Of a DNA stretch of 64,000 nucleotides, positions 31,286-63,675 are shown piece by piece. How positions within the stretch are numbered: position 1 is the first letter of the stretch; the number at the start of each line of letters is the position of its first letter. Source of the stretch: Schizochytrium sp. TIO01 (taxonomy: Eukaryota > Protista > Bigyra: Labyrinthulomycetes). Below the pieces are notes generated by a model that was not told the origin of the DNA, did not search any database, and saw nothing but the letters and a program-made list of their open reading frames with translations. The DNA lies in the NCBI GenBank assembly GCA_004764695.1, contig SMSO01000025.1:620001-684000 (forward strand), read 5' to 3'. A program made the position numbers and the translations under genes.

Positions 31286-33024
31286 TGACTCAAATCAGTG
31301 TGTAGCACGACAACTCACGAAGCGTGCTTCAATGCCGATTGGAAACTGACTCTCTTACCTAGGTCTGGAGACTATCTATTCAGAGGAAGATTTAAATCTT
31401 ATTATTGAAGTAGTAAATGATAATAGACATCTATTCTGCTAGTGTTGTTGAAATAGCTTTGATTACTAAAAGATACATACGTATACCCTTTGTGTAAGTG
31501 CACAGCCTCCTGACAGGTCGAGAACTTGTCGTGTACACGAGTGTTATCATCATCATGTGACACATACGCATATAGATCCGGTTCCATTTTGTATCCGTTT
31601 GGTGGAACATATGTTATTCCTATTGCAGAAGGATAAATTTAATTCATATAAATTAGCAGTAGTAAGCAGTGCTCAAATGCTCTAATGATGCGAACCCTGT
31701 GGTCAAACTTGGTTTATATGAAAGGTACTTGCCATTGAATTTGGAAATATGTGACTTGACTCATATTCTTGATGGTAGTCCAGCTTCCTTCGGAGTAACA
31801 ATCCAAAGAGTCCACTTGACACATTTGTGTCCATGAGAAGAAGTGCAATTTTCTTTTTAAAACGTTGAATCAAGAACATTTTTTTTTGTAACGGATAAAA
31901 TTAAAATCTCAAAACCTTGCCCCCAGGAATCATCTATTGCTGAAACTTAAGGCAAAGCATTCGCTTACAGAGTATTGTATTCAAGCATACACACTGTAAC
32001 AAATTTGAACCGGGTCTACATTTTATTTAACTTTTCTTTTTTTTGGGGGGGGGTGGTTCTAGTTTTATTCTTGGTGTCACCAGGGTTTTTGTTCTATTTC
32101 CAGAATTTCATTGGCCTATGCTATCGCCAGGAAACGCTTTCTTTCTAGCCCATTTTATTCCAATGGGTGCTCTGTTTCTTCTTTTGTTTCTATTTTCAGT
32201 CTTCCTATTAATCTGGCTTTGTATGAACAAATCGTTAAGTAAAACGCAGTTAGTGATATTTGGCGATTTAGCGTGGAGCGATTAGCGAGGGATGGATAAA
32301 TAAATGAAGGAAAGAATAGTTTAGGATTAACATTAAAAAACCACTGCCGAAGTCTGTGAAGTCCAAGCCTTGGAGTGAGCATGTTCTTTTCGAGATATTC
32401 TAGTAAATACACACATACTTGTAAACTTTTCCTGAGAAACTTCAATACCGCCTCAACATAAAGCGGCAGAAAATATGAATGAGTTTAGCTAGCCCCAAAG
32501 TATGTCGCTCTCGCCAAACGCTTCTCTAGATTCTAGAGTTGACATCTCTATTTTTATCTTTCTTTCAAAAGTCGTCATGTTGTGTTTTAATTAAAATAAT
32601 ATGCAGCCAAGAATCTAACCTCACCTAACCTAATCTAGCTCTCCTGTCCGACACTCTTCAGTTCGACTCTAAACATTCTGCAAATACCCAGCCCGATCCG
32701 GAACCCCAATAACATAATTAGCCTCCTCCTCTTTCTCCTGAGCTTGTCATCCTTGTCAGACTACCTCTGCACGCTCCACTACATGAGCTAACTTGCAATA
32801 GTTTTTAATCAATCTTTTAGTATGGGTACTCGTATTTGTCATGATGAAGTGATTTGAATGAGTTATCGATTTGTTGCATCACCCAAGAGCGTATAATTAT
32901 CAAAGTTATAAGAAAAGGAGAGGACAACACTAAAACCGAATAAAACCAAACAAAAGAAGATTAGTAAGTACAATTTTTTAATTTAAAATAAGAAAGAAGA
33001 ATAGGTCGGTAAATTTTGGTAAAT

Positions 33025-36000
33025 TTAGGCTGATGCAATGAGACCATGAGTTCGCAGCTTGCTCAATAAATCATTCACTTGGCTCCGTGACTCATTCAAC
33101 CAGTCCCGAAGTTTCTCACATTCATCACGCAGGGCTTGAATTTCTGATTGGCTATACGAAGCAGATATCGTCAAACCACCTATAGTTCCATCTCCAGGGT
33201 CATAGGTTGCCGAAATGTCAGTCACAGCGGTAGCTTGCGAACCAATCACCTGGTTCCCTCCAACAGATATCGTACCAACATTCGAAATAGCGGTACCGTC
33301 AAAAGAAACACTTTCAATAATTACAGTGCCGGAAGAGGAGCTTACAGTCAATGACGTTGCGCCTGTATGAGAAATTGAGGCAATGTCGTTACTAAGCGAG
33401 ACATCGCCTGTCATGCTGAGAGACACAACATCCGAAATGGCATTGCTTGTGCTAAATGAAACTCCCTGTACAACCACATCACCACCAGACGAAATGGTCA
33501 ACGCACTGCTATCTGCATGCGAAATTGTGGATGCGCCTGAAGCACCGAACGCTAGGTTTCCACCGGACGTCATATCGCCACTTGTGGTCAGCGTTGAGAC
33601 ACTCAAAGCGCCAGTACTTGTGATTGCACCTGTTTTCATGGTAACTCCTGAAACAACGACGTTGCCACCAGAAGTGATTGACAAGTCTGCATTTGCAGCG
33701 CCAGTGTGAGTAATGGCTTGAGCAGAAGATGAAGTCAATGCGATCCCTCCAGCGCTGCTGGTCAAGGTGCCTGTCATGCCGATTGTACTGGCACCGCTCA
33801 CAGCCCCTCCGTTCATTGTGACTCCATGAACAACCACATCACCACCAGACGAAATAGTCAATGCACTGCTATCTGCATGCGAAATTGTGGATGCGCCTGA
33901 CGCGCTGAACGCTAGGTTGCCACCAGACGTAATATCACCACTTGTGGTCAGTGTTGAGACACTCAGAGCGCCCGTACTTGTGATCGCACCCCCATTCATT
34001 GTAACACTATTCACAATAACGTTGCCACCAGAAGTGATTGACAAGTCTGCATTTGCAGCGCCAGTGTGAGTAATGGCTTGAGCTGAAGATGACGTCAATG
34101 CGATCCCTCCAGCGCTGCTGGTCAAGGTGCCTGTCATGCCGATTGTACTGGCACCGCTCACAGCCCCTCCGTTCATTGTGACTCCATGAACAACCACATC
34201 ACCACCAGACGAAATAGTCAATGCACTGCTATCTGCATGCGAAATTGTGGATGCGCCTGAAGCACTGAACGCTAGGTTTCCACCAGACGTAATATCACCA
34301 CTCGTGGTCAGTGTTGAGACACTCAGAGCGCCCGTGCTTGTGATCGCACCCCCATTCATTGTAACACTATTCACAATAACGTTGCCACCAGAAGTGATTG
34401 ACAAGTCTGCATTTGCAGCGCCAGTGTGAGTAATGGCTTGAGCAGAAGATGAAGTCAATGCGATCCCGCCAGCGCTGCTAGTCAAGGTGCCTGTCATGCC
34501 GATTGTACTGGCACCGCTCACAGCCCCTCCGTTCATTGTGACTCCATGAACAACCACATCACCACCAGACGAAATAGTCAATGCACTGCTATCTGCATGC
34601 GAAATTGTGGATGCGCCTGACGCGCTGAACGCTAGGTTGCCACCAGACGTAATATCACCACTTGTGGTCAGTGTTGAGACACTCAGAGCGCCCGTACTTG
34701 TGATCGCACCTCCATTCATTGTGACACTATTCACAATAACGTTGCCACCAGAAGTGATTGACAAGTCTGCATTTGCAGCGCCAGTGTGAGTAATGGCTTG
34801 AGCTGAAGATGAAGTCAATGCGATCCCTCCAGCGCTGCTGGTCAAGGTGCCTGTCATGCCGATTGTACTGGCCCCGCTCACAGCACCTGCGTTCATCGTA
34901 ACGCCATCAACAACGACGTTGCCACCAGAAGTGATTGACAAGTCTGCATTTGCAGCGCCAGTGTGAGTAATGGCTTGAGCAGAAGATGAAGTCAATGCGA
35001 TCCCTCCAGCGCTGCTGGTCAAGGTGCCTGTCATGCCAATTGTACTGGCACCGCTCACAGCCCCTCCGTTCATTGTGACTCCATGAACAACCACATCACC
35101 ACCAGACGAAATAGTCAATGCACTGCTATCTGCATGCGAAATTGTGGATGCGCCTGACGCGCTGAACGCTAGGTTGCCACCAGACGTAATATCACCACTT
35201 GTGGTCAGTGTTGAGACACTCAGAGCGCCCGTACTTGTGATCGCACCTCCGTTCATTGTAACACTATTCACAATAACGTTGCCACCAGAAGTGATTGACA
35301 AGTCTGCATTTGCAGCGCCAGTGTGAGTAATGGCTTGAGCTGAAGATGAAGTCAATGCGATCCCTCCAGCGCTGCTAGTCAAGGTGCCTGTCATGCCGAT
35401 TGTACTGACACCGCTCACAGCACCTCCGTTCATTGTGACTCCATGAACAACCACATCACCACCAGACGAAATAGTCAATGCACTGCTATCTGCATGCGAA
35501 ATTGTGGATGCGCCTGACGCGCTGAACGCTAGGTTGCCACCAGACGTAATATCACCACTTGTGGTCAGTGTTGAGACACTCAGAGCGCCCGTACTTGTGA
35601 TCGCACCTCCATTCATTGTAACACTATTCACAATAACGTTGCCACCAGAAGTGATTGACAAGTCTGCATTTGCAGCGCCAGTGTGAGTAATGGCTTGAGC
35701 AGAAGATGACGTCAATGCGATCCCTCCAGCGCTGCTAGTCAAGGTGCCTGTCATGCCGATGGTACTGGCACCGCTCACAGCACCTCCGTTCATTGTGACT
35801 CCATGAACAACCACATCACCACCAGACGAAATAGTCAATGCACTGCTATCTGCATGCGAAATTGTGGATGCGCCTGACGCGCTGAACGCTAGGTTGCCAC
35901 CAGACGTAATATCACCACTTGTGGTCAGTGTTGAGACACTCAGAGCGCCCGTACTTGTGATCGCACCTCCATTCATTGTAACACTATTCACAATAACGTT

Positions 36001-39000
36001 GCCACCAGAAGTGATTGACAAGTCTGCATTTGCAGCGCCAGTGTGAGTAATGGCTTGAGCTGAAGATGACGTCAATGCAATCCCTCCAGCGCTGCTGGTC
36101 AAGGTGCCTGTCATGCCGATTGTACTGGCACCGCTCACAGCACCTGCGTTCATCGTAACGCCATCGACAACGACGTTGCCACCAGAAGTGATTGACAAGT
36201 CTGCATTTGCAGCGCCAGTGTGAGTAATGGCTTGAGCAGAAGATGAAGTCAATGCGATCCCTCCAGCGCTGCTAGTCAAGGTGCCTGTCATGCCAATTGT
36301 ACTGGCACCGCTCACAGCCCCTCCGTTCATTGTGACTCCATGAACAACCACATCACCACCAGACGAAATAGTCAATGCACTGCTATCTGCATGCGAAATT
36401 GTGGATGCGCCTGACGCGCTGAACGCTAGGTTGCCACCAGACGTAATATCACCACTTGTGGTCAGTGTTGAGACACTCAGAGCGCCCGTACTTGTGATCG
36501 CACCTCCGTTCATTGTAACACTATTCACAATAACGTTGCCACCAGAAGTGATTGACAAGTCTGCATTTGCAGCGCCAGTGTGAGTAATGGCTTGAGCTGA
36601 AGATGAAGTCAATGCGATCCCTCCAGCGCTGCTGGTCAAGGTGCCTGTCATGCCGATTGTACTGACACCGCTCACAGCACCTCCGTTCATTGTGACTCCA
36701 TGAACAACCACATCACCACCAGACGAAATAGTCAATGCACTGCTATCTGCATGCGAAATTGTGGATGCGCCTGACGCGCTGAACGCTAGGTTGCCACCAG
36801 ACGTAATATCACCACTTGTGGTCAGTGTTGAGACACTCAGAGCGCCCGTACTTGTGATCGCACCTCCATTCATTGTAACACTATTCACAATAACGTTGCC
36901 ACCAGAAGTGATTGACAAGTCTGCATTTGCAGCGCCAGTGTGAGTAATGGCTTGAGCAGAAGATGACGTCAATGCGATCCCGCCAGCGCTGCTGGTCAAG
37001 GTGCCTGTCATGCCGATTGTACTGGCACCGCTCACAGCACCTCCGTTCATTGTGACTCCATGAACAACCACATCACCACCAGACGAAATAGTCAATGCAC
37101 TGCTATCTGCATGCGAAATTGTGGATGCGCCTGACGCGCTGAACGCTAGGTTGCCACCAGACGTAATATCACCACTTGTGGTCAGTGCTGAGACACTCAG
37201 AGCGCCCGTACTTGTGATCGCACCTCCATTCATTGTAACACTATTCACAATAACGTTGCCACCAGAAGTGATTGACAAGTCTGCATTTGCAGCGCCAGTG
37301 TGAGTAATGGCTTGAGCTGAAGATGACGTCAATGCAATCCCTCCAGCGCTGCTGGTCAAGGTGCCTGTCATGCCGATTGTACTGGCCCCGCTCACAGCAC
37401 CTGCGTTCATCGTAACGCCATCAACAACGACGTTGCCACCAGAAGTGATTGACAAGTCTGCATTTGCAGCGCCAGTGTGAGTAATGGCTTGTGCAGAAGA
37501 TGACGTCAATGCGATCCCTCCAGCGCTGCTAGTCAAGGTGCCTGTCATGCCGATGGTACTGGCACCGCTCACAGCACCTCCGTTCATTGTGACTCCATGA
37601 ACAACCACATCACCACCAGACGAAATAGTCAATGCACTGCTATCTGCATGCGAAATTGTGGATGCGCCTGACGCGCTGAACGCTAGGTTGCCACCAGACG
37701 TAATATCACCACTTGTGGTCAGTGTTGAGACACTCAGAGCGCCCGTACTTGTGATCGCACCCCCATTCATTGTAACACTATTCACAATAACGTTGCCACC
37801 AGAAGTGATTGACAAGTCTGCATTTGCAGCGCCAGTGTGAGTAATGGCTTGAGCTGAAGATGACGTCAATGCAATCCCTCCAGCGCTACTGGTCAAGGTG
37901 CCTGTCATGCCGATTGTACTGGCACCGCTCACAGCACCTCCGTTCATTGTGACTCCATGAACAACCACATCACCACCAGACGAAATAGTCAATGCACTGC
38001 TATCTGCATGCGAAATTGTAGATGCGCCTGAAGCGCTGAACGCTAGGTTTCCACCAGACGTAATATCACCACTTGTGATCAGTGTTGAGACACTCAGAGC
38101 GCCCGTACTTGTAATCGCACCTCCGTTCATTGTAACACTATTCACAATAACGTTGCCACCAGAAGTGATTGACAAGTCTGCATTTGCAGCGCCAGTGTGA
38201 GTAATGGCTTGAGCAGAAGATGAAGTCAATGCGATCCCTCCAGCGCTACTGGTCAAGGTGCCTGTCATGCCGATTGTACTGGCCCCGCTCACAGCACCAG
38301 CGTTCATCGTAACGCCATCAACAACGACGTTGCCACCAGAAGTGATTGACAAGTCTGCATTTGCAGCGCCAGTGTGAGTAATGGCTTGTGCAGAAGATGA
38401 CGTCAATGCGATCCCTCCAGCGCTGCTAGTCAAGGTGCCTGTCATGCCGATGGTACTGGCACCGCTCACAGCACCTCCGTTCATTGTGACTCCATGAACA
38501 ACCACATCACCACCAGACGAAATAGTCAATGCACTGCTATCTGCATGCGAAATTGTGGATGCGCCTGACGCGCTGAACGCTAGGTTGCCACCAGACGTAA
38601 TATCACCACTTGTGGTCAGTGTTGAGACACTCAGAGCGCCCGTACTTGTGATCGCACCCCCATTCATTGTAACACTATTCACAATAACGTTGCCACCAGA
38701 AGTGATTGACAAGTCTGCATTTGCAGCGCCAGTGTGAGTAATGGCTTGAGCTGAAGATGACGTCAATGCAATCCCTCCAGCGCTACTGGTCAAGGTGCCT
38801 GTCATGCCGATTGTACTGGCACCGCTCACAGCACCTCCGTTCATTGTGACTCCATGAACAACCACATCACCACCAGACGAAATAGTCAATGCACTGCTAT
38901 CTGCATGCGAAATTGTAGATGCGCCTGAAGCGCTGAACGCTAGGTTTCCACCAGACGTAATATCACCACTTGTGATCAGTGTTGAGACACTCAGAGCGCC

Positions 39001-42000
39001 CGTACTTGTAATCGCACCTCCGTTCATTGTAACACTATTTACAATAACGTTGCCACCAGAAGTGATTGACAAGTCTGCATTTGCAGCGCCAGTGTGAGTA
39101 ATGGCTTGAGCAGAAGATGAAGTCAATGCGATCCCTCCAGCGCTACTGGTCAAGGTGCCTGTCATGCCGATTGTACTGGCCCCGCTCACAGCACCAGCGT
39201 TCATCGTAACGCCATCAACAACGACGTTGCCACCAGAAGTGATTGACAAGTCTGCATTTGCAGCGCCAGTGTGAGTAATGGCTTGAGCAGAAGATGACGT
39301 CAATGCGATCCCTCCAGCGCTGCTAGTCAAGGTGCCTGTCATGCCGATGGTACTGGCACCGCTCACAGCACCTCCGTTCATTGTGACTCCATGAACAACC
39401 ACATCACCACCAGACGAAATAGTCAATGCACTGCTATCTGCATGCGAAATTGTGGATGCGCCTAACGCGCTGAACGCTAGGTTGCCACCAGATGTAATAT
39501 CACCACTTGTGGTCAGTGTTGAGACACTCAGAGCGCCCGTACTTGTGATCGCACCTCCATTCATTGTAACACTATTCACAATAACGTTGCCACCAGAAGT
39601 GATTGACAAGTCTGCATTTGCAGCGCCAGTGTGAGTAATGGCTTGAGCTGAAGATGACGTCAATGCAATCCCTCCAGCGCTACTGGTCAAGGTGCCTGTC
39701 ATGCCGATTGTACTGGCACCGCTCACAGCACCTCCGTTCATTGTGACTCCATGAACAACCACATCACCACCAGACGAAATAGTCAATGCACTGCTATCTG
39801 CATGCGAAATTGTAGATGCGCCTGAAGCGCTGAACGCTAGGTTTCCACCAGACGTAATATCACCACTTGTGGTCAGTGTTGAGACACTCAGAGCGCCCGT
39901 ACTTGTAATCGCACCTCCGTTCATTGTAACACTATTCACAATAACGTTGCCACCAGAAGTGATTGACAAGTCTGCATTTGCAGCGCCAGTGTGAGTAATG
40001 GCTTGAGCAGAAGATGAAGTCAATGCGATCCCTCCAGCGCTGCTGGTCAAGGTGCCTGTCATGCCGATTGTACTGGCCCCGCTCACAGCACCTGCGTTCA
40101 TCGTAACGCCATCGACAACGACGTTGCCACCAGAAGTGATTGACAAGTCTGCATTTGCAGCACCAGTGTGAGTAATGGCTTGAGCAGAAGATGAAGTCAA
40201 TGCAATCCCTCCAGCGCTGCTAGTCAAGGTGCCTGTCATGCCGATTGTACTGGCACCGCTCACAGCACCTCCGTTCATTGTGACTCCATGAACAACCACA
40301 TCACCACCAGACGAAATAGTCAATGCACTGCTATCTGCATGCGAAATTGTGGATGCGCCTGACGCGCTGAACGCTAGGTTGCCACCAGACGTAATATCAC
40401 CACTTGTGGTCAGTGTTGAGACACTCAGAGCGCCCGTACTTGTGATCGCACCTCCATTCATTGTAACACTATTCACAATAACGTTGCCACCAGAAGTGAT
40501 TGACAAGTCTGCATTTGCAGCGCCAGTGTGAGTAATGGCTTGAGCTGAAGATGACGTCAATGCGATCCCTCCAGCGCTACTGGTCAAGGTGCCTGTCATG
40601 CCGATTGTACTGGCCCCGCTCACAGCACCTGCGTTCATCGTAACGCCATCGACAACGACGTTGCCACCAGAAGTGATTGACAAGTCTGCATTTGCAGCAC
40701 CAGTGTGAGAGATACTTTGCGACAAACTAGAAGTAAGGAAGAGGCTTCCTGCCGTGCTAATATCGTCTGTTGCTGTAATGGTACCTGAAGTAGATATGGC
40801 ACCTGCATTGAAAGTGACTGTCTCAATAATCACATTTTGGGCATCCGCACTAATGACAACGTTTCCCGATGTAGACAAGATGCTAAGATCTGCTCCGGTG
40901 TTGCCAGTATGAGTAATGCTTTGTGCTGATGAAGAAGTCAGCAGAATACTGCCAGCTGAGTTGGTAAGATCACCGGCCATGGTGATGTCGTTCACATCAG
41001 TCATGTCTTGAGTTTGCAATGTAATGCCTTCAACAATGACTACACCACTGGTCGACGACATAGTCAGAGACGTGGCGCCACTGTGCGTAATGGCTACAGT
41101 ATCACCGGTCATAAGGATGCTCCCTGCAGTGCTAATATCGTCTGTTGCTGTAATGGTACCTGAAGTAGATATGGCACCTGCATTGAAAGTGACTGTCTCA
41201 ATAATCACATTTTGGGCATCCGCACTAATGACAACGTTTCCCGATGTAGACAAGATGCTAAGATCTGCTCCGGTGTTGCCAGTATGAGTAATGCTTTGTG
41301 CTGATGGAGAAGTTAGCAGAATACTGCCAGCTGAGTTGGTGAGATCACCGTCCATGGTGATGTCTGTGGCGGCGCTTATGGCACCTGCATTGAAAGTGAC
41401 TGTCTCAACAATCACATTTTGGGCATCCGCACTAATGACAACGTTTCCTGAGGTAGACGAGATGGTATAGTCAGCTCCATCAGCGCCAACATGCGTGAAT
41501 GTCTGAGCTAAAGTAGAGTAGACTTCAATGTTGCTATCCTTGAAACGTACGCCATCCACATCAACGTTGCCATTTGTAGACAAGATGTTAAGATCTGCTC
41601 CGGTGTTGCCAGTATGGGTAATGCTTTGTGCTGATGGAGAAGTTAGCAGAATACTGCCAGCTGAGTTGGTGAGATCACCGTCCATGGTGATGTCTGTGGC
41701 GGCGCTTATGGCACCTGCATTGAAAGTGACTGTCTCAACAATCACATTTTGGGCATTCGCACTAATGACAACGTTTCCTGAGGTAGACGAGATGGTATAG
41801 TCAGCTCCATCAGCGCCAACATGCGTGAATGTCTGAGCTAAAGTAGAGTAGACTTCAATGTTGCTATCCTTGAAACGTACGCCATCCACATCAACGTTGC
41901 CATTTGTAGACAAGATGCTAAGATCTGCTCCGGTGTTGCCAGTATGGGTAATGCTTTGTGCTGATGGAGAAGTTAGCAGAATACTGCCAGCTGAGTTGGT

Positions 42001-45000
42001 GAGATCACCGTCCATGGTGATGTCTGTGGCGGCGCTTATGGCACCTGCATTGAAAGTGACTGTCTCAACAATCACATTTTGGGCATCCGCACTAATGACA
42101 ACGTTTCCTGAGGTAGACGAGATGGTATAGTCAGCTCCATCAGCGCCAACATGCGTGAATGTCTGAGCTAAAGTAGAGTAGACTTCAATGTTGCTATCCT
42201 TGAAACGTACGCCATCCACATCAACGTTGCCATTTGTAGACAAGATGCTAAGATCTGCTCCGGTGTTGCCAGTATGGGTAATGCTTTGTGCTGATGGAGA
42301 AGTTAGCAGAATACTGCCAGCTGAGTTGGTGAGATCACCGTCCATGGTGATGTCTGTGGCGGCGCTTATGGCACCTGCATTGAAAGTGACTGTCTCAACA
42401 ATCACATTTTGGGCATCCGCACTAATGACAACGTTTCCTGAGGTAGACGAGATGGTATAGTCAGCTCCATCAGCGCCAACATGCGTGAATGTCTGAGCTA
42501 AAGTAGAGTAGACTTCAATGTTGCTATCCTTGAAACGTACGCCATCCACATCAACGTTGCCATTTGTAGACAAGATGCTAAGATCTGCTCCGGTGTTGCC
42601 AGTATGGGTAATGCTTTGTGCTGATGGAGAAGTTAGCAGAATACTGCCAGCTGAGTTGGTAAGATCACCGGCCATGGTGATGTCGTTCACATCAGTCATG
42701 TCTTGAGTTTGCAATGTAATGCCTTCAACAATGACTACACCACTGGTCGACGACATAGTCAGAGACGTGGCGCCACTGTGCGTAATGGCTACAGTATCAC
42801 CGGTCATAAGGATGCTCCCTGCAGTGCTAATATCGTCTGTTGCTGTAATGGTACCTGAAGTAGATATGGCACCTGCATTGAAAGTGACTGTCTCAATAAT
42901 CACATTTTGGGCATCCGCACTAATGACAACGTTTCCCGATGTAGACAAGATGCTAAGATCTGCTCCGGTGTTGCCAGTATGAGTAATGCTTTGTGCTGAT
43001 GGAGAAGTTAGCAGAATACTGCCAGCTGAGTTGGTGAGATCACCGTCCATGGTGATGTCGTTCACATCAGTCATGTCTTGAGTTTGCAATGTAATGCCTT
43101 CAACAATGACTACACCACTGGTCGACGACATAGTCAGAGACGTGGCGCCACTGTGCGTAATGGCTACAGTATCACCGGTCATAAGGATGCTCCCTGCAGT
43201 ACTAATATCGTCTGTAGCTGTAATGGTACCTGAAGTAGATATGGCACCTGCATTGAAAGTGACTGTCTCAATAATCACATTTTGGGCATCCGCACTAATG
43301 ACAACGTTTCCCGATGTAGACAAGATGCTAAGATCTGCTCCGGTGTTGCCAGTATGAGTAATGCTTTGTGCTGATGGAGAAGTTAGCAGAATACTGCCAG
43401 CTGAGTTGGTGAGATCACCGTCCATGGTGATGTCTGTGGCGGCGCTTATGGCACCTGCATTGAAAGTGACTGTCTCAACAATCACATTTTGGGCATCCGC
43501 ACTAATGACAACGTTTCCTGAGGTAGACGAGATGGTATAGTCAGCTCCATCAGCGCCAACATGCGTGAATGTCTGAGCTAAAGTAGAGTAGACTTCAATG
43601 TTGCTATCCTTGAAACGTACGCCATCCACATCAACGTTGCCATTTGTAGACAAGATGCTAAGATCTGCTCCGGTGTTGCCAGTATGGGTAATGCTTTGTG
43701 CTGATGGAGAAGTTAGCAGAATACTGCCAGCTGAGTTGGTAAGATCACCGGCCATGGTGATGTCGTTCACATCAGTCATGTCTTGAGTTTGCAATGTAAT
43801 GCCTTCAACAATGACTACACCACTGGTCGACGACATAGTCAGAGACGTGGCGCCACTGTGCGTAATGGCTACAGTATCACCGGTCATAAGGATGCTCCCT
43901 GCAGTGCTAATATCGTCTGTTGCTGTAATGGTACCTGAAGTAGATATGGCACCTGCATTGAAAGTGACTGTCTCAATAATCACATTTTGGGCATCCGCAC
44001 TAATGACAACGTTTCCCGATGTAGACAAGATGCTAAGATCTGCTCCGGTGTTGCCAGTATGAGTAATGCTTTGTGCTGATGGAGAAGTTAGCAGAATACT
44101 GCCAGCTGAGTTGGTGAGATCACCGTCCATGGTGATGTCGTTCACATCAGTCATGTCTTGAGTTTGCAATGTAATGCCTTCAACAATGACTACACCACTG
44201 GTCGACGACATAGTCAGAGACGTGGCGCCACTGTGCGTAATGGCTACAGTATCACCGGTCATAAGGATGCTCCCTGCAGTACTAATATCGTCTGTAGCTG
44301 TAATGGTACCTGAAGTAGATATGGCACCTGCATTGAAAGTGACTGTCTCAATAATCACATTTTGGGCATCCGCACTAATGACAACGTTTCCCGATGTAGA
44401 CAAGATGCTAAGATCTGCTCCGGTGTTGCCAGTATGAGTAATGCTTTGTGCTGATGGAGAAGTTAGCAGAATACTGCCAGCTGAGTTGGTGAGATCACCG
44501 TCCATGGTGATGTCTGTGGCGGCGCTTATGGCACCTGCATTGAAAGTGACTGTCTCAACAATCACATTTTGGGCATCCGCACTAATGACAACGTTTCCTG
44601 AGGTAGACGAGATGGTATAGTCAGCTCCATCAGCGCCAACATGCGTGAATGTCTGAGCTAAAGTAGAGTAGACTTCAATGTTGCTATCCTTGAAACGTAC
44701 GCCATCCACATCAACGTTGCCATTTGTAGACAAGATGTTAAGATCTGCTCCGGTGTTGCCAGTATGGGTAATGCTTTGTGCTGATGGAGAAGTTAGCAGA
44801 ATACTGCCAGCTGAGTTGGTGAGATCACCGTCCATGGTGATGTCTGTGGCGGCGCTTATGGCACCTGCATTGAAAGTGACTGTCTCAACAATCACATTTT
44901 GGGCATTCGCACTAATGACAACGTTTCCTGAGGTAGACGAGATGGTATAGTCAGCTCCATCAGCGCCAACATGCGTGAATGTCTGAGCTAAAGTAGAGTA

Positions 45001-48000
45001 GACTTCAATGTTGCTATCCTTGAAACGTACGCCATCCACATCAACGTTGCCATTTGTAGACAAGATGCTAAGATCTGCTCCGGTGTTGCCAGTATGGGTA
45101 ATGCTTTGTGCTGATGGAGAAGTTAGCAGAATACTGCCAGCTGAGTTGGTGAGATCACCGTCCATGGTGATGTCTGTGGCGGCGCTTATGGCACCTGCAT
45201 TGAAAGTGACTGTCTCAACAATCACATTTTGGGCATCCGCACTAATGACAACGTTTCCTGAGGTAGACGAGATGGTATAGTCAGCTCCATCAGCGCCAAC
45301 ATGCGTGAATGTCTGAGCTAAAGTAGAGTAGACTTCAATGTTGCTATCCTTGAAACGTACGCCATCCACATCAACGTTGCCATTTGTAGACAAGATGCTA
45401 AGATCTGCTCCGGTGTTGCCAGTATGAGTAATGCTTTGGGTATTGGATGAAGAAAAGCTGATACTTCCTGTAGAGATGGTAAGGTCGCCGGTCATATCTA
45501 TTGTGGTAATATCAGACATAGCTTGATTATTAACAGTAACTCCATCAAGGATAAGGTCTCCCCCGGAGGTAATTGAAAATGCGCTATTGTCAGAATGATC
45601 GATATTTTGGGTTCCTGATGCAGACATAAGAATATCTCCTGTTTGAATTGAGAGATCGCCAGTTCCATCAAGTGTAAAAAAAACTGTATCTGATGATTGA
45701 GGTGTTGCAGAATACACGGTGTCAGAAGCTTCATCTGTTGCAATGGTCCAAGTTGCTCCTGTTATGTATCCTGTTGAAGCTGAGAATTGTACATAAAGCC
45801 CATCAGAAAGGAGCAGAGGAGCGCTATATGCAGAGCTGATAGAAACCCCACTTGTATACGATCCCGAGCCTTTTCTCCATTGAAAAGTGTCTCCTGCCGT
45901 TACTTCAACATAGAAGATTTCACTAGTCGAATCAGTGTAGGTTCCACTAGAAGTAATTGTTTTGCCGGGGATGTGTGTTTCGCCTACTCCGGCTGTAATG
46001 AGATTAAATGCAGCATTGGCAGCTCGCGCTGCTTTAACATCAAAAACGGTATCTGCGAAAGATGTGCTTGTTGCAACTGCTGTTAATGCAGTAGAACTAG
46101 TACTTTCTTGCTTTACTACTCCACCTCCAGTTTCAACAGTTAAGCCATCTTTAATATTGGCGCCTCCTGTGACATCAGCGCCTCCTGCAGCAACATATAG
46201 GCCTCCGGCAGTAATATCAATTCCTCCGGCATCGACAAGAATACCACCTTGCTGAACATAGATGCCGTTATCTTCTACAGTAAGCAAGTCTCCAAAGTAT
46301 GACTTCATTGAGACGCCCAGTCCACCCTGTATCATGACATCCGCAGATGTAGAGGAGGTTGCATCATTTGTACTAGTAGCAGTGATTGTACCACCAAAAT
46401 AAGAATCTAGTGCCACACTGAGGCCGCCATTAGTGCGAAGTGAGCCTGAGCCTACGCTAGTTGATGTGGTAGTACCTTCTGCAACTATGTTTGTTCCAGC
46501 ATATATTGCTTTTGTGACAGCAAGTCCACCTGCATGCATCACAGACCCAGCTGTGGAACTTGTTGCGTCAGTCGTGTCTTCTGTGACAACAATTCCTCCT
46601 ACATATAGTTGCTTTGCGACTGCCATACCGCCAGCTGTTTGAAAAGAGCCGTATGTAGAACTTGTTGCATCAGTGGTTGCTCGCACAAACGTGTCACCGT
46701 TGCCAAATACAGTAAATACCCTGGTACTGCCTGACGCTTGTAAATCAAGTAAACTAAACGATCTTGCTCCAGTCTCTTGAGCACGAATAACAGTCACAAT
46801 ATCTGTAAAGGGCGTACCAAGGGCTGCAACTTCCAAGACAGGTTCAAGAAGGTTTGTTGAAAATATGTCAGCCCCATCTTCGTCAACTATAAGCCCACCC
46901 TCGATGATTTCTGCACCACCATCAGCAACAATGAGACCTCCAGAGTAAATGTAGACCTGACCATCTCCACGTACGTCAAACACAGGTACATCATTTGCAA
47001 GTGCTTCGATAAACTTATAGTCACTGGCAGCAGCCTTGGCTGAGGTGAGTTTAAGGACCGACCCGACAAATGCAAGTCCTGTGTTCTCAATGGTAAAGGT
47101 CGACTGATAGTCATTTGTTACAACTTCGTAAGTCTTGGTATCGCAATTTGAACCACCATATCCAACAAAGCATGCACATGTTCCTGTTGACGCATCACAC
47201 GAGCCTCGACCAGAACACTGCCGAAACTCTTTCAAATAGGTGTTTGTGTCGATGGCGAGGACACACGTTGGCGTTGTTCCACTGGAAATGCCGCTGGTGA
47301 TACAAGTGAATTCGTCAACATCCGGATTACCTGCATGCCAGAAAAGGTTGTTAAAATTACCAGATTCCCATGCAGTAAAAGTGATTGTATACTCAGCACC
47401 GGAATTTGCATCTACAGAGCCCTGAGTGACAGTAACTGATCCAATTGAGGGATGCGCTTCGAGAGCTGTTTTCATGGAAGCTGCATCTAGAGCTGATGCA
47501 TCAGCATCAAATGTAATTGAGTCACCCATAAATCGCAGTTCAAATTCGCCTGCTAGCGTCCCTGACGATGCTCCTGTTGTTAAAGTTATAGTGTAGTCGC
47601 GTTGATACTCATCTACAATGGTAGCTGTTGCTGATGTATAGCTAGATCCTCCGTTGGTAATAGTAATTGATGCAATTGCTCCGTTCGAATCGACTACAGG
47701 AGTGGCGGTGGCACCTGATCCATCACCGGTGATTGTAATCACGGGATTGTTGTAAGCCTCTCCTCCTGTTGTTACAGCTATTGCCGTAATTACGCCGCTG
47801 GAAAGAGTTACCGCACCTAGCTCAGCATCAAATCCTGGTACAGTGTCTGGGTCATCACCCATTGGGCATACAGCGTATTCACAGTTAGGCCCAGTAAAGC
47901 CACGATCACAGTTGCATACATAGTTCTTGCTACTCTCCCAGTTTGTATAAGCGGTTCCCACACCATCCTGATCACTATCTGATCCATACTCAAGGGCAAT

Positions 48001-48701
48001 TTCTGCAATGCTTAAGCAACGTCCCTTACCGCTGCAATCATTATTACAGCGAACACGCTGACACGCATCTCCTGTGAATCCAGTGAAACAATCACATTCA
48101 CCCCGTTCTCGATCACATGTACCAGCGTTAGAACATTCAGCACTACCCACGTGTGCTGTCAAAGCGTCGTAAGGCTTTCCGCTCCACCTGGGGCCAGTGG
48201 GACATGATCCTGTGTCAATGAGGTAAAAAAAAAAATCATAAATAAGATGGAACGTTAGGTTTTGGTGTTTACAGATGCAATTTTGCCCAGAATGACAATT
48301 CGTGGCATCCTTCAAAAAGGAGCGATTCTGCATTTATCTCTTTCGTGTGATTAGAAAACCTCCTTTCTCTTGATATATGGGCTAGTAGATTTCTTAAGCT
48401 AACGCAACTTACGTAATGAACAGTCCGGGGCGCCGTCCCAGCCAGTAAAGCAGGTACACGTATCATCTGGGTTACAAGTACCCCGTTTATTACAGTTATT
48501 TGGACAATGGGCTTCTGCACTTCGAAGGCCCAGCACAATGATTATGAATAGGACAAGGTCCCTACATGTCCCGCGTTTCCTCGAAGGTTTGGAAGGCCTT
48601 ATTTTCAAGGGCTTTAAGGAGCTGAAATGCAAGGTTGAAGGATCCTTGATGAGACCCTGCCCTTGCCGATGTGGCTCCTTTGAGAAGGGTCCCGCTGCCA
48701 T
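33025..48701 (-). CDS. Giant secreted or anchored fibre-like protein (about 5157 aa; exon 1 48701-48413, exon 2 48209-33025): mastigoneme-type EGF head, beta-repeat shaft, phage tail-needle-like C-terminus
   Basis: ORF 48399-48701 carries a hydrophobic segment LVLFIIIVLGLRSAEA and the EGF HCPNNCNKRGTC. It splices in phase to the 5102-codon ORF, giving DCSLR-SCPTG. Further EGF/tenascin-like repeats and a CPMGDDP motif follow, then long Ser/Thr/Gly/Ala tandem arrays, ending SYSQSEIQAL...LRTHGLI. Confidence 0.9.
33470..40710 (-). repeat. Coding tandem array B: 17 long (360 bp, 120 aa) and 7 short (177 bp, 59 aa) units
   Basis: Shadow-ORF starts recur at 360, 537 and 897 bp spacing. Units read GGNVVVDGVTMNAG..., GGNVIVNSVTMNGG... 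and GGDVVVHGVTMNGG.... Confidence 0.95.
40745..45438 (-). repeat. Coding tandem array A: 330-bp (110 aa) and 375-bp (125 aa) units with 1080-bp and 3150-bp higher-order duplications
   Basis: Near-identical copies. Shadow-ORF starts recur at 330, 375 and 1080 bp spacing (e.g. 42518/43598/44678). Shared variants occur 3150 bp apart. Confidence 0.95.
48210..48412 (-). other. Spliceosomal GT-AG intron (203 bp, phase 1) of the giant fibre gene
   Basis: Donor C|GTAAGT at 48412, CTAAC branch-like motif near 48255, T-rich tract, and acceptor ACACAG|GA at 48210. Splicing restores a CGA (Arg) codon and the frame. Confidence 0.85.
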
Positions 48702-51700
48702 CGCAGGGGGCTACAGGTAGTAGATGTAGATCTTTCACTCGTGTACTACCTTGCTTTTCGTCGCACCCTCAAAACTGGATTATAAGCTAAACCTCAAATA
48801 AGACAAGACTGCTACGACACACAAATCCGGGAGGGCCCGAGCGCGGCTACAGAGGTCTTGCACGCGCCTCGCAGTATCAAAGTTCTCAAGGCTCACAGTT
48901 CTCCCTTGTTGAGACCTTTAAAGAAATGCAAAGGCAGCTTAGATCGTTTCGCGCTAAAACAAAGGCTCTCAAAGTCAACTGGCCCTTTGGCCCAATCTAT
49001 CCAAACACCACGGCGAGTGACAGTGACTTTGCCAGCCAATATCACCCGAGCACTGGTGGGGAAAGTACCTCCTTCGATACTTAATTGAGTTCACCTTCCT
49101 CCAAAAAAAAGCACTGAGCACGCTTCGTGACTTAGCGATGCCAAGCTCACCGTTCAATTAATTCCTCGCTCACCTTGCACCTGCACAACCCAATTTCTGG
49201 GACCCTGATCAACGGTCAGACGATTCCCCGTATTCCCGTACTATTTGGGGCAATTCCTATAGGGTTCCTAATATGTTCTGCTATTAGTGTATCTAACGGT
49301 GACTTTTCGTGGATAACAAATTGCAATGGATTGTAATTTCACTTTGTACCGAAGATGCGGTGCTAGCAGCTCTTCGTGTCTGATATCAAATATGTTTGCT
49401 ACTATGTGGCTCGATGTAATAAGCTTTCCCTCACCACCGCTCTCAAGGTGCAGGCCTGCTCTCATGATGATACCTACTACAATAGAAATTTGAGCGCACA
49501 ATGCGAGAACAGGTTTGCATCATGTCGATCAGTTTGCGTAACATCTCCAGGTTCATTAAGAACAGTTAGTAATAGTAGGTACCTGCCTACTAACTGGTGT
49601 ACCTGACTTCATCAAGCTATCTTTACTTCAATTTTTCAAGTTGAAATTGAAGAAGTGGGGGCTCTCTCATTAATTTTATTACTCCTCTACGAGGGGATTA
49701 CTCAAGTAGAAATGTTAGACAGACCATTGAAAATCAGATAGCCTATTTAAACAGTATCCTACCATAGTACCTTGACCTAAGTTTTTTCACTAAGGAATAG
49801 GATTTATATCCTCTGGCTTGTGGGAGTGATGAAACAGCTAAGCACATTTGGTTCAAGTTATGAGCAATTGATTTGGCTTGAATTTTCGCGCAAGCTAGTT
49901 TTAAATTTCAAACCGCTCAAAATGTCAGCTCTACCTTTCCTAAGTACTATCCTATCAGGGGCCTTCAAGTACATTGACTAGTGGTGTTTGCTAGTACTGC
50001 GTCCAAATCATCGTCGTATGGATTGATATCTCATGCAGTAACTCTGATTAGCCAGAGCTAGCTTATGAAGGAGCATTCACTAGGATCGCTTTCCATAAAT
50101 ATGTCATCCTGTATCTACTGGTGTATTAATTCTATTCGTGCACATGATAATAAATCTGAACCTTGCAAGTCATGTTTGGTGTTTGAGTTTAAAAAACAAA
50201 ATTATGTGCAAAAAATGATGTACCGCCAGTTTCTGATAAATGTTGATATCGTATATTTGCAAAAAGGTTGATAAAGTTCCACGAAGGCTAACACTAAAAC
50301 ATACTTCGTTGAGACCCGTACCTTCTTGTATGCGAAGAATAATTATCACAAGGTAGTTTGCAAATTACGAACAATCCCTTAGGGATAATCTTCAGCCCAA
50401 AGTATGAGAATTTAGCTTTATTACTTTTGTAGAGCAATGGATCTGCTTCTACTTGGACCTTGGAGTGCATAATTTTATTTAGTCGAATGTTCCTCTAGCC
50501 TGGTCAATATTTTGCATTCGAAGCAGGCTCAGGACATTTTCAATACAGTTTGTGTAAGATATTCAACAAAACATGCTGATGTAGGAAATTAGATGTTGTA
50601 AGGGCTGAAACCACTACGACCAAAAGGATAACAATTGTACCTCCGATTTGATGTGGTTTGGTAAAAATTTTCAAGTAGTGTGATTGGCTTTATATTCGCT
50701 GGAATTTTCTTACTAGACATCCACACTGTTGACGATGCTAAAATAAATAAGAACAGAGACATATTTCCTACAAGCTGTATCTCATTCTCTCATGTAAAGA
50801 CTATGTATGCAAAGACCTAAATAGTGATTAATAGTAGACTACATGACTTGCAAGCAATTGCCCAAAGTGAACGTCTTAACCATGAATAATGGTTTTTGTA
50901 AAGTTCACCAACAAGATTTATATTCCAAGTCTACTACAGCATGACTCTTTGAGTGTGTCTCATTCTGCCATGAGGAATACCTGATACCGTGGTACTCTGT
51001 GATGCGGTTTAGCTTGCTATGTGAATTTTGAAATATGAAGTGGTGTCTGTCCAAAAATGTGTACTACTATCTTCCAGATAAGCTTGGCAAAAGCTTGAAT
51101 TAGGACTGCATCTTTACCTGCAGACTGTCTTGATTGGAACTAGATGAGCTATAATGTATTTGAAGTTACACAGTTTGAATGTTTTACAACTGCAATGCAG
51201 ACTAGTTAGGATTACTTGAGCAAAGAGAGTTGTTTGTGGTGTTAAAGCAGTATGTAAACTATCACCATATCATTTGACATTGAATCCATCACACTCTCAC
51301 TAGCGAGATGTTATTTTACTGGCAGCCCTTCAACTAGGTAAACCTCAAGCCACAAGCCACCACATCCATCCTGCTTCTAGCTACTAGGTAGCAATGAGCT
51401 AGGGTGATACCTGACTGGTAGCAGACTCTATTCCTTGGTGCATGTTTGCGATGTTGCCGCAACATCGGTCACACACGATGAAAAGTCCGCAGGTCGGTTA
51501 GAAAGTGGAATTTTCAGCGAGATAAACTCAAGACATAGTTCATGGGTTTGCATAATCATAAATTATATGATGCGAGTGAGCCATGCAGGACTCGAACAAT
51601 ATCCATTGCCTACTTGAAGTCTGGTGTGTACTTTTTAGTCTAATACTATGGAAAGCATCCCATGTGTATAATTCAGTGAAGCTTTTGTATCGCGCGAACA

Positions 51701-53050
51701 CAAGTCGCGATCAATTACCCAGGGACTCGGAGGCTTCTTTTATCCTCCATCAATTATCATCGCCCAGCAAACTTGCTCACGAGTCACGACCAAGGTGTGT
51801 TTGATTCCTTGATTCACTCTGAGATGGGTGTACCTATGTTGTCAATTTGTACGCACTATCAGCAAGCAAGCCAGGTGCACGCCCAGACGAGCCACGTCGC
51901 GAATGAAAGTCAAGCAATGCCAGGTAGTTTGACTACTTGATTACCTGCATTGCTAGGCAGGTCTTCTTCTTCTTGATGATGATTTCCTGCCACGTATACG
52001 CACGCAAACGATGATAGTCCACCAAAAGAATCTTTGCATTTCTGATGCTTCTTCGCATGTCTCAGCATGTGTCGGCAAGCTAAAACCTGGTAGCATCTGT
52101 ACCTATGAAAATGTTAGAACTTAGAGAACCTCCAAATGTTAGTGTTTATTTTATTTAGGAATGATATGTTGTAGGGGCTTTGATAAGAGAAGTAAGAGAA
52201 GTGGACGTTAGGTAAGAAAGTGGCATGGCCAAGGAACCGCGAAGCTCTAATCACTTCAAGTGAAGCATGCATACAATACAAGCCAGCAAAGCACTTTAGC
52301 TAGGGATTTGGCGTCCCGGCAAGTGCCTTTCAGGCGCTTCCCCGTGGGCAAACGCATACGCGCAAGTGACAACGTTGAGCGCATCTATGGCTGCGGTTTG
52401 TTCCGGCGGCCGCACTAACCTCACCACTATTGATGCCAGAGTGCCCTCCCGAGCAAAAAGAGAATTTCAAATGCAATTTGATGATTTCTAGCATATCTAT
52501 CCGGACACCTCCGCCGTCTACAAAGTCTTCGGAAGGGGGTCAACTTCAAAAGGCCGGGCTTGCAAACCCTTCGGTGTCGTCCTTTCAGGCAATTTTGCCT
52601 AAACTTGAAACCTCAACAAGTTATCAAGACGGATCAAATTCAAGAAAGCTCGAATGATGGGTCGATGCCTTCCGCCAAGCGCCCATTCGCAAAGCCGAGC
52701 TTTTCTCCTGTCAGTGGTGTAAACTGATCGTTTGCCAAGAGGATTGACTTCAAACCATGCAGTGAATGTCGTACCATCCACGACAAGCTTGAAACATCCA
52801 CGGTTTCCAAAAGCCCAAGATGCAGATTCGTAGTCGATCTTAAACTCCACGTCGCTAGAGCAGTTCTTTTGCGCTACCTATTCAAAAGCAACATTGAAGT
52901 TTATGTCTTTCAGTCGCATTAACCGTGATTTGGGCCTTCGCCCCACGTCGTCATCGAAAATGCAAAATTTTGCAAATTCTATACGTTAATTACTAAGTGA
53001 AAGTTTCTACGTGGGGTGAACTCTGTGTTTTGTGCTACTACTGCTGACTG

Positions 53051-53170
53051 TGTATGTATGTATGTATGTATGTATGTATGTATGTATGTATGTATGTATG
53101 TATGTATGTATGTATGTATGTATGTATGTATGTATGTATGTATGTATGTATGTATGTATGTATGTATGTA
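53051..53170. repeat. (TGTA)30 microsatellite
   Basis: 120-bp perfect tetranucleotide run. Confidence 0.98.
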
Positions 53171-53989
53171 TAGGTTCCTTGGTATTACAGAGACGCTGAG
53201 CAACCTGAACATCAAAGAGTGAGTGCTTCAGCCCATCATTTCGTACCCGCTTTGCAGGCAAATGCGAATTGCAGTTGCCTCCTTGCAGAAAGGCTGTTAC
53301 GAGTTCTACTGCCTATCTTCAGAGCGACCAAGCTGACATCATGCTTTCTTCAGAGTCTTGCTTGCTTGCTATAATTGACTTTGTTAGCTAGGTATCTGCG
53401 TTTCGCTCAGAGGCAGCTGGAGCGAGAGGTTTCGTCGGACCGATTGAGTTCTATTCGTCATTTCTAAACCCACTCGCCTCTCGCGCAAATGAAAGGAAGC
53501 CCAAGACAGCTAGCTAACTAGCTTCGCTCACCTGAGAAGCCTGCCGCCTGGAGAGCCCTCTCTTCAAAGTACTCACGGAAGCTGTCCACACTGGTCTCAT
53601 GCATGCCCTTTACTTCAAAGGAAGATTAGCTAGCGAAGCTGGTAGATACTACCTACTCTCAGTACCTACCTATAGATATTTGAGATAAAAAGAGTAGTAA
53701 CCAAAATCCATAGCTTTAAAGGTATTTTTTCTTTCTTTGGATATGACGAACTTGAAAAGCCTTGAACATTTGAGATGTAATTCTACTACTTAAAAATTCC
53801 TATACTAATATTAAAAGTCAAAACAATAAACAAATAAACAAATAGAGAATCAAATATTCATCGTAGTTAAAACAATAAATTAAAAAAAAAAACCACAAAA
53901 AACCACAAACGATAAACAGGTAAAAAACGAAAGCGCACGACGTCGTTGGTCACTGTCTTTTTCCAGTACTTTTGCTTGCAGATGCAAGA

Positions 53990-54864
53990 CTACCTACCTA
54001 CCTACCTACCTACCTACTCCTCATCTAGTTAAATCCACCCCACCTTCGTACCAATTCTAACTAGAGCACTAGCTGCCGAAGCAAGCCAATGCAGACCAAA
54101 GCAAAATAAAAAAAAAGACCTCCTGTGCTCCTGCCATAGTGAAACGATCCTTAGCATACGTGCCTGCTTACTAGCTAGAGCTACACTGCAATAGAAGCCG
54201 CCGTTCCACTTGTTCTGTTCTTCTGCCTGTTCCGCCTCCTCCGTTCCATTCGTTCTGTTCTCCCAGTTCACTGCTCCTTGCCGCGAATATCCATTGTGCC
54301 TTGGCGATTTCGCAGTTCGTTCACGCTGGCCTCTCGGCCGTTGCGGCACGGGGCCCAGGGCTCAGCAGCAGAGCAGAGCAGTGGGGCTGCGGCTCCGAAG
54401 CACGCGTCACGGATCGACGCGAACCACGAGTGAGTGAGTGAGTGAGTGAGTGGGTCAGCCAGCCAGCGAGCGAGCGAGCGAGTGCGAATCGATCGTGACG
54501 GCCGCTGGTTCTTAAGGTAGGCACGCAGGTAGGTAGTTAAGGAGGAGGGGCAGCGTCTGACTGACTGACTGACTGAAGCTGTCTGTCCCCAGAGGGGTCT
54601 AGATAGTAGATAGATAGATAGATACATACAGACCCTTCCGCTTCTTTCCATGCTACTGGTTTATGTACAGAGAATTGAAGGCTTCTTTCTATTTTCTATT
54701 TTCTATTTTCTGTTTTACAATTAAAATGAAAAGAGAAGAAAGAACCAGAGGAAGTTAATGAAAGTAGAAGAAAGAGAACCGCGAGGAATCAGTCAATGCA
54801 GAAAGAAACGAAAAAAGTGACTGGGAAAGAAGAAGAAGAAGAAGAAGAAGAAGAAGAAGAAGAA
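53990..54864. repeat. Microsatellite cluster: (CTAC)7, (GAGT)n, (GCGA)n, (CTGA)n, (TAGA)n, (TTTTCTA)n, (GAA)12
   Basis: Read directly: CTAC run at 53990-54017 and GAA run at 54829-54864, with the other short runs between them. Confidence 0.9.
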
Positions 54865-59350: not shown

Positions 59351-59767
59351 AGACTCTGGCAAAGGTCTGCGGATGTAGAAGATGAAGAAAATTCTGTTCT
59401 ATACTCTGATTGAGATGCTTATACACACAAAAAAGATCAGCCATACCAACAAGTTAAAGGTCTTGAACATCTAAAACCCGAACAATTAATTTGGCTGCAG
59501 CAGCTTTCCAAAAATACTTTTTCAGATGGAATAACACACCACCCAAAGGTTTGAGCGAATTTGCTAGCTGCTATCGAAGTCCTATTTTTTAGGCTTGACC
59601 CGATGGTATCCTTCCCTGTCTTCTTCCAAAGATTGTCTAAAGCTGGTGCGACGGTGGAATTTATGTCTTTGGTTTGGCATAATCCTCAATTCGTAAAAAC
59701 TAAGCGTCATCAGGAGCCACGGCCAAATAGAGTTCTGATCAAGCCACGAATCATGACGCGTATTTAA
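59351..59767 (+). pseudogene. Possible decayed exon/pseudogene fragment
   Basis: After an acceptor-like TTAACAG, one frame reads 138 codons of protein-like sequence interrupted only by two in-frame TGA codons (59411, 59552). No family recognised. Confidence 0.3.
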
Positions 59768-61613: not shown

Positions 61614-61742
61614 TAGGTAGGTAGGTAGGTAGGTAGGTAGGTACCTATCTATCTGTTTGTTTGTGCATCATTGCGTGTGTTCTCTTTCATAGAGCCTAAC
61701 AAACAAACAAACAAACAAACAAACAAACAAACAAACAAACAA
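61614..61742. repeat. (TAGG)7 and (AAAC)10 microsatellites
   Basis: Read directly at 61614-61641 and 61701-61740. Confidence 0.95.
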
Positions 61743-62852: not shown

Positions 62853-62910
62853 TGTTTGTTTGTTTGTTTGTTTGTTTGTTTGTTTGTTTGTTTGTTTGTT
62901 TGTTTGTTTG
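62853..62910. repeat. (TGTT)~14 microsatellite
   Basis: Read directly. Confidence 0.95.
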
Positions 62911-63610: not shown

Positions 63611-63675
63611 GAATGAATGAATGAATGAGCGAGTGAGTGAGTGAATGAATGAATGAATATTCATTCATTCGTTCA
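63611..63675. repeat. (GAAT)n/(GAGT)n microsatellite joined to an inverted (ATTC)n
   Basis: Perfect 24-bp palindrome at 63647-63670. Confidence 0.9.

Follow-up and report, generated by a model that had tools for sequence, protein, structure and literature searches.

The stretch of DNA analysed here (the window) comprises 64,000 nucleotides (nt) of contig SMSO01000025.1 of Schizochytrium sp. TIO01, positions 620,001 to 684,000. On its minus strand lies a spliced gene (33025..48701) whose product appears to join a head homologous to a subunit of the mastigoneme tube to a very long shaft with viral relatives and a tip like the tail needle gp26 of phage P22. We believe that this product is very probably a secreted homotrimeric fibre. 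On balance, and with much less assurance, we favour the view that it serves as one of the terminal or lateral filaments on the tripartite hair of the zoospore, about 300 nm long, with its heads docked on the tube. An original prediction, made from the sequence of the window, had offered three roles, namely a mastigoneme filament, an adhesin of the ectoplasmic net and a probe for capturing bacteria; the filament has the best support of the three, and this support is indirect.

Gene structure and transcription

The longest open reading frame (ORF) of the window (33025-48333, minus strand) has 5,102 codons. Together with a first exon upstream, it gives a spliced product of 5,157 amino acids (aa) with a single stop, so that the two-exon gene of about 5157 aa proposed originally was recovered from the ORF, the intron phase and a spliced RNA contig. 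In the sequencing runs available, exactly the 203-nt intron was skipped in one contig of the RNA-type run X15, and the same stretch was continuous in the DNA run X2. An RNA contig over exon 1 spans 48412-48689. The tip and the repeats were covered by runs X15 and X17, and the intergenic stretch 31400-32422 was uncovered there and covered by both DNA runs. The RNA status of the runs was deduced from the spliced joint and the absent intergenic cover, as no run is recorded as RNA. Because X15 skips the intron and X15 and X17 cover the tip and the repeats and not the intergenic DNA, the gene is real, spliced and transcribed at both ends. Absence of expression had been named as the outcome that would count against the original prediction; transcripts were found in the RNA-type runs, the spliced joint included. 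RNA-type contigs (48668-49176) also reach up to about 475 nt upstream of the ATG, as a long 5' untranslated region or a separate transcript. The parts of the gene are as follows.

48413..48701, minus strand: exon 1, 289 nt, from the ATG at 48701 to GT, with a long n-region, an h-region (residues 49-59), a predicted signal cleavage site after residue 64 and the first EGF-like module (residues 66-94); Pfam EGF_Teneurin, E 7.9e-6
48210..48412, minus strand: intron, 203 nt, GT..AG, ending in a pyrimidine tract and AG
33025..48209, minus strand: exon 2, in which the frame resumes in phase after the intron
47839..48209, minus strand: EGF-rich mastigoneme-type head core ending in CPMGDDP; matches OCM chains of 9UFE at E 6e-24 to 2e-16
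47614..47829, minus strand: insert 1, a beta repeat typical of phage baseplate and virion proteins (PHROG 460, E 1e-10; PHROG 438, E 1.5e-10)
47239..47604, minus strand: insert 2, an alpha/beta domain aligned within 9UFE_BA too, with no Pfam or PHROG match
47128..47229, minus strand: last EGF module, by Pfam and by the profile alignment with 9UFE_BA
46678..47109, minus strand: neck, a family-conserved beta module, repeated in Aphanomyces members
45964..46677, minus strand: Gly-Gly beta repeats, common to many proteins without the EGF head
45634..45963, minus strand: insert 3, about 110 aa, repeated also in the non-family proteins P0008, P0064, P0081 and P0120, with no PHROG match
40714..45603, minus strand: shaft array A, 28 units of 41-69 aa
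33376..40713, minus strand: shaft array B, 41 units of 50-63 aa
33025..33375, minus strand: last shaft unit, P22 gp26-like tip (the last ~85 aa, a beta segment and a coiled coil) and stop; RNA contigs in X15 and X17

The hydrophobic signal or anchor of the original prediction is present as a stretch at residues 49-59, followed by A-x-A/H-C (the slash marking the predicted cut). Because this stretch has only 11 aa and comes after an n-region of 48 aa without another Met, we favour a cleavable signal over an anchor. Kyte–Doolittle (KD) hydropathy exceeded 1.5 only in windows at residues 44-49 and 227, in agreement with the claim that no C-terminal transmembrane segment is visible. Among the nine complete homologues checked, the N-terminal hydrophobic peak was present in all nine, and a C-terminal hydrophobic window above KD 1.5 was absent in eight, the exception (P0004) being a partial protein. 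A membrane-anchored receptor was rejected.

The head resembles a whole mastigoneme subunit

Residues 61-455 hold 26 Cys, the CPMGDDP motif included, as expected from the several EGF/tenascin-like Cys modules that had been described. When the head was searched against the PDB at E<=0.001, the sole matches were six chains of 9UFE, the tubular mastigoneme. A profile of 16 family sequences aligned end to end with chain 9UFE_BA (chain positions 6-363 of 366, E 6e-66), and this chain stops just after the module equivalent to the last EGF, where the neck starts here. Because the profile aligns with chain BA from 6 to 363 of 366, we regard the head, on sequence evidence, as the homologue of a whole tube subunit, with the fibre beginning where BA ends. 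The stramenopile mastigoneme-type head of the original prediction is supported by these matches.

The protein shares with the Ocm/Mas/Sig subunits (9UFE chains BA, EA/OCM5, AA, DA, FA/OCM6 and CA/OCM3) a probable signal peptide, an EGF-EGF-EGF core with CPxGxDP, the alpha/beta insert and the final EGF, collinear with chain BA. However, BA and OCM5 have only 366-368 aa and stop once the last EGF is complete, whereas this protein adds a fibre of about 4,700 aa and a cap, and its head has an extra phage-type insert. Teneurins and tenascins also have EGF-like repeats (Pfam PF23106, PF07974), but only the EGFs match, and the teneurins reached E 2e-17 in the same profile search against 6e-66 for 9UFE. 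No FN3, NHL, YD or fibrinogen family was found by Pfam in seven segments (head, neck, both repeat types and tip). A tenascin or teneurin was rejected on the EGF-only match and the difference in E.

Of the beta-sandwich inserts described originally, the two in the head are indeed present, but the second is an alpha/beta domain and not a plain beta-sandwich. Insert 1 occurs in only some family heads (P0003, P0015, P0039, P0169 and P0180). Insert 2, which is well predicted in the AlphaFold2 (AF2) model, resembled a tail-tip chain of mycobacteriophage Bxb1 (9d93_Ma; VIA-align Z 11.4, root-mean-square deviation 2.5, 103 aligned) and a Bxb1 capsid domain (9d9w_Aa; VIA-align Z 8.2); this likeness of a modelled fold is no demonstration of function. 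A Foldseek search with the head model was without matches at E<=0.001, and 9UFE was absent among the matches listed by Foldseek and VIA for this model (predicted template modelling score 0.49). Insert 2 is common to the core mastigoneme subunit 9UFE_BA, a hint that a phage-like decoration domain belongs to the hair tube as well.

The shaft and its viral-type relatives

The roughly 4000 aa of tandem beta-rich modules in the original description resolve into 70 anchor-defined units of 41-69 aa, array A holding 28 of them and array B 41, and the last one continuing into the tip. Repeat units appeared in runs X2, X15 and X17 as collapsed multi-copy contigs with a depth of about 107-223, compared with 11-17 for unique parts. 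A contig spanning the whole array was sought in the contigs of other runs and none was found; therefore, the exact unit count rests on this assembly. Among the copies of array B, the variation is purely synonymous at 34 codon positions and alters the residue at 11.

Array-B repeats are 47-51% identical to the repeats of the viral-type proteins P0016 (E 2e-42) and P0030 (E 2e-32), compared with E 0.064 for the best of 20 shuffles, and P0030 starts with a head-decoration/tail-fibre domain. The short Gly-Gly beta repeats that had been noted are also present. Such repeats occur alone, with or without a peptidase S74 domain (S74), in 118 of 159 stored proteins, and some of these proteins match phage structural or decoration families (PHROG 697/3018 on P0007 and P0017). 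The PHROG, PDB and phage matches of the needle tip given below support the viral-fibre-like modules that had been suspected downstream of the head. We consider it plausible that viral fibre parts were grafted onto a eukaryotic scaffold; the reverse, capture of a host shaft by viruses, could also account for the likeness.

Pattern scans of the viral_contigs set with the shaft unit, P0030, P0178 and the tip gave no relatives, by a method that reaches close relatives only. Pfam DUF7737, LolB and BppU_N on the repeat arrays had zero passing stretches and were treated as repeat artefacts. P0016 itself has 3,239 aa, with LVIVD repeats besides the shaft repeats of this gene, and lies on a contig (L001) of 32-42% GC, where its neighbour is a ribonucleotide reductase gene that has no introns and carries a glutaredoxin insert (L001 135-2786); we read L001 as probably belonging to a large DNA virus. 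One homologue of the shaft alone (P0020) is labelled Durusdinium trenchii and may stem from a contaminating stramenopile associated with it, or be an occurrence in its own right.

Polinton-like viruses, giant viruses and phages are reported to have long modular fibres closed by an S74 trimerisation chaperone (PMC12220804). The shaft repeats of this gene are close to viral ones, but the gene differs from these viral fibres in being a spliced nuclear gene with a probable signal peptide, a mastigoneme head and ordinary eukaryotic neighbours.

The gp26-like tip and the predicted trimer

With the last 116 aa as query, gp26-family needles were the top 6 of the 10 PDB matches listed, the best being 2POH at E 0.005. 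The tip matched the tail needle family PHROG 1219 at profile positions 157-232 of 233 (E 1.4e-7), and it had 25 matches at E<=0.1 among phage records, which were P22-like and, where annotated, tail needles. A profile of tips brought no improvement against the PDB (E 0.02). In addition, the tip of a tail-fibre-like protein (P0178; PHROG 16641, E 1e-19) is 66% identical to that of this gene. In an Atlas search, the C-terminal 288 aa were linked to viral clusters, in all cases as leads below 0.9. Comparisons were taken from whole-protein alignments. The match to gp26 is modest but consistent, and it is C-terminal in both proteins; the helical needle tip of the original prediction stands on it. 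P22/HK620 gp26 (2POH, 5BU5; PHROG 1219) shares with this protein about 80 C-terminal aa at about 35% identity, placed at the chain end and predicted to be trimeric with a coiled coil. It differs in that this protein has neither the N-terminal portal plug nor the long coiled-coil shaft, the approximately 4,100 aa before its tip are beta repeats, and its gene is eukaryotic and spliced.

Three copies of the last 288 aa were modelled together. The homotrimer score was 0.90, compared with 0.00 for the best control, and the predicted local distance difference test (pLDDT) was 96. In three runs the scores were 0.89-0.90, and at least 94% of about 1,500 inter-chain contacts were shared, with contacts running through the shaft units. 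Of 30 solved homo-pairs, 21 came up to the calibration mark, which had been set on two copies; of 23 single chains, none did. The homotrimeric fibre of the original prediction is thereby supported as a prediction.

The tip of P22 gp26 has been reported to stabilise the trimer; it is dispensable and replaceable by foldon, its removal lowers trimer stability, and its exchange leaves host specificity unchanged (PMC3741392). The same 2013 paper describes this tip as unmatched outside P22-like phages (PMC3741392).

A family with exchangeable caps

In the family search, 7,984 candidates were scored and names were looked up for 30 proteins. Named relatives bearing the head came from Hondaea, Aphanomyces (three species), MAST-3, Chlorochromonas (Ochromonas) danica and Aureococcus (a cluster fragment), and many more were metagenomic. 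The closest named homologue (68%) belongs to Hondaea fermentalgiana and is auto-labelled teneurin/tenascin. Head-bearing relatives from genomes and transcriptomes were all stramenopile where a taxon was given, although most matches carry none, and the groups of the named members (thraustochytrid, oomycete, MAST-3, chrysophyte and pelagophyte) bear hairy flagella. The ortholog search across stramenopiles recommended at the outset thus found relatives, and it revealed a wide family with swappable phage-type caps that had been missed.

The head was found in 46 of 202 stored proteins (redundant rows, query included). Among these 46 rows, 23 had the gp26-like tip, 10 a third cap, 3 an S74 cap by the seed-based count, and 10 had no cap or were partial rows; Pfam adds S74 to P0006, P0009 and P0013, the seeds having overlooked that of P0009 and left out P0013. 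The SDxRLK motif of S74 was intact in five of the six family rows checked. The third cap is similar to viral clusters, among them K1-lyase_C, at Atlas scores of 0.92-0.93, which we treat as a lead. By sequence, members of the family seem to share one head, and their shafts differ widely in length and end in any of three unrelated phage-type caps. Complete members ranged from about 720 to 2,200 aa, and the 5,157-aa gene was the longest seen; a second giant member was sought among proteins of 2,806-8,929 aa, where 1 of 1,109 candidates matched and was an unrelated repeat protein. The head tree held 14 of the 46 rows, as partial and >90% redundant rows were dropped, and because its base is not resolved, the order of cap swaps cannot be read from it.

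A 296-aa protein (P0176) has a signal-like N-terminus, shaft units and a gp26-like tip and no EGF head, and headless fibres may also exist. In the gene model of the O. danica member (P0013), an Sm D3 snRNP gene seems to have been joined on at the C-terminus, probably by an annotation merge.

Possible function and rival explanations

Once transcribed and spliced, as observed here, the product would enter the endoplasmic reticulum by its cleavable signal. The C-terminal gp26-like cap would nucleate and stabilise the trimer, which is predicted for the last 288 aa and would extend along the whole shaft as about 70 beta units interdigitate behind the cap. In relatives, a self-cleaving S74 chaperone or a K1-lyase-C-like cap stands in place of this tip; S74 ensures productive trimerisation and then cleaves (PMC10769870). 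Because the heads are homologues of tube subunits, the three N-terminal heads would dock on the end or the side of the mastigoneme tube, with the fibre projecting outward. Repeat number would set the length of the filament like a ruler. Lateral filaments of Ochromonas are about 40 and 200 nm long. According to the abstract of Bouck, hairs bear terminal and lateral filaments, and two sizes are mentioned with no figures given (Bouck 1971, PMC2108286). Bdellovibrio Bd3182 measures about 550 Å, its modelled region ending at residue 922 and its cleavage lying at 782 (PMC10769870). At 0.06-0.07 nm per residue, scaled from this fibre, the length would be about 280-330 nm here and 50-60 nm for P0013. 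The latter (EukProt EP01039, EP01039_P010763) is none of the six chains of 9UFE, which fits a thinly distributed appendage that a structure of the tube would not include; the 9UFE chains bear OCM names, and we take O. danica to be the source species.

Several points weigh against a hair filament. Transcripts were found in at least four RNA-type runs whose life stage is not recorded, so that vegetative expression is possible. PnMas3 is reported to be absent from the mature hair, and a homologous head need not bind the tube (bioRxiv 10.64898/2026.09.11.750887). In limited searches, no Phytophthora, brown-algal or diatom name was among the named matches, though hairs exist there. The Aureococcus fragment lies within a gp26-capped cluster, and this coccoid genus is not known to have a flagellate stage. 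As for the fibre itself, the trimer score covers 288 of 5,157 aa and may have profited in part from the solved structures of gp26 and tailspikes, and the last 288 aa modelled as a monomer gave, at low confidence, a single-chain parallel beta-helix (4phb, Z 13.9; HMW1, HMW1/FHA-like, Z 13.8).

The most serious rival places the same trimeric fibre on the cell body, the scales or the ectoplasmic net as an adhesin or spacer, with the repurposed mastigoneme head anchored to another partner; attachment would have to go through the head because there is no membrane anchor. We consider this appreciably less probable than the filament. It would be the eukaryotic counterpart of the Bdellovibrio MAT fibres, which have a signal peptide, a conserved N-terminal domain, an intertwined trimeric beta shaft and interchangeable C-termini including S74 (PMC10769870). 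These are bacterial proteins of about 1,000 aa with another N-terminal domain, likened to our protein by build, and adhesion has been shown for the MATs only (PMC10769870). The trimer model and the head profile suit an adhesin equally, as do the transcripts of unrecorded stage and the Aureococcus fragment, and variable shafts with swapped tips are a hallmark of MAT adhesins (PMC10769870). On the other hand, the only close solved relatives of the head are mastigoneme subunits, and a net adhesin is at odds with a family spanning oomycetes, chrysophytes, pelagophytes and MAST-3, which lack such a net. A probe for catching prey or bacteria, with a gp26-like tip that binds bacterial surfaces, would agree with the homology to a phage needle and with the 66% identity to the tip of P0178. 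We hold it to be unlikely and found no support for bacterial capture, as the P22 tip can be dispensed with, works as a stabiliser and does not alter host specificity when swapped (PMC3741392), relatives hold at the same position an S74 chaperone that is cleaved off, and the osmotrophic Aphanomyces has the family too.

It is similarly improbable, if anything slightly more so, that the shaft is a single-chain beta-solenoid like filamentous haemagglutinin, in which at most the tip oligomerises. The beta-helix likeness of the AF2 monomer is the sole result in favour of a monomer; its pLDDT was 53, from a different program, against 96 for the trimer with its contacts through the shaft units, and each of the three kinds of cap derives from phage fibres or spikes that are trimeric. 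We think it very improbable that the gene is real but much shorter, with an over-expanded array in the assembly, or that it is an inert endogenous viral remnant. Near-identical repeat copies without an independent spanning contig, and complete homologues of about 700-2,200 aa, would fit such a case. They are opposed by one open frame across 15.3 kb, the spliced intron with transcripts at both ends, the mostly synonymous variation in array B, the multi-copy depth in other runs and the eukaryotic neighbours. An endogenous virus was rejected on the spliced and transcribed gene, the open frame and these neighbours.

Genomic surroundings

The neighbours are ordinary eukaryotic genes encoding kinesins, a helicase and a pseudouridine synthase. 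At 17822-22709 (plus strand), the ORF of a kinesin motor and a coiled-coil ORF downstream of it share 21192-21250 in different frames, and the two probably make up one gene interrupted by an intron or frameshift; another kinesin is encoded at 11692-13485 (minus strand). Just downstream of the fibre gene, 32615-32790 is a short dispersed repeat with a depth of about 9,900 in run X1, compared with 340 nearby, and many loose ends. It has no second copy in the window and is possibly similar to a miniature inverted-repeat transposable element or another interspersed element. Upstream of the gene, about 15 kb (48750-64000) hold no ORF of 150 aa or more, with microsatellites at about 53000-53200, while the rest of the window is gene-dense.

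Novelty and significance

No description of a mastigoneme-type head fused to a phage fibre was found in a full-text literature search that was mostly without subscription papers and the 9UFE paper, and in the literature searched we found no protein named for the terminal or lateral filaments of the hair. The single parts are known; their combination, its spread across stramenopiles and the exchange of caps appear to be new. The tube of the stramenopile hair has a solved structure, and this family is a concrete candidate for its filaments, in a genetically tractable group, which predicts filament length from gene length. We further suggest, tentatively and with less than even confidence, that the terminal and lateral filaments of the hair are domesticated phage-type tail fibres, each a tube subunit joined to a trimeric viral shaft of repeat-set length, with caps repeatedly swapped from the virosphere (S74, gp26 tip and K1-lyase-C-like). 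If this is true, phage fibre technology, gp26 tip included, would have become part of an extracellular organelle of eukaryotes, its caps being exchanged in the manner of the Bdellovibrio MAT fibres, and the structure that names the stramenopiles would carry domesticated phage-type fibres. Even as an adhesin, the protein would belong to a widespread secreted trimeric-fibre family, for which we found no description, in ecologically major protists and oomycetes.

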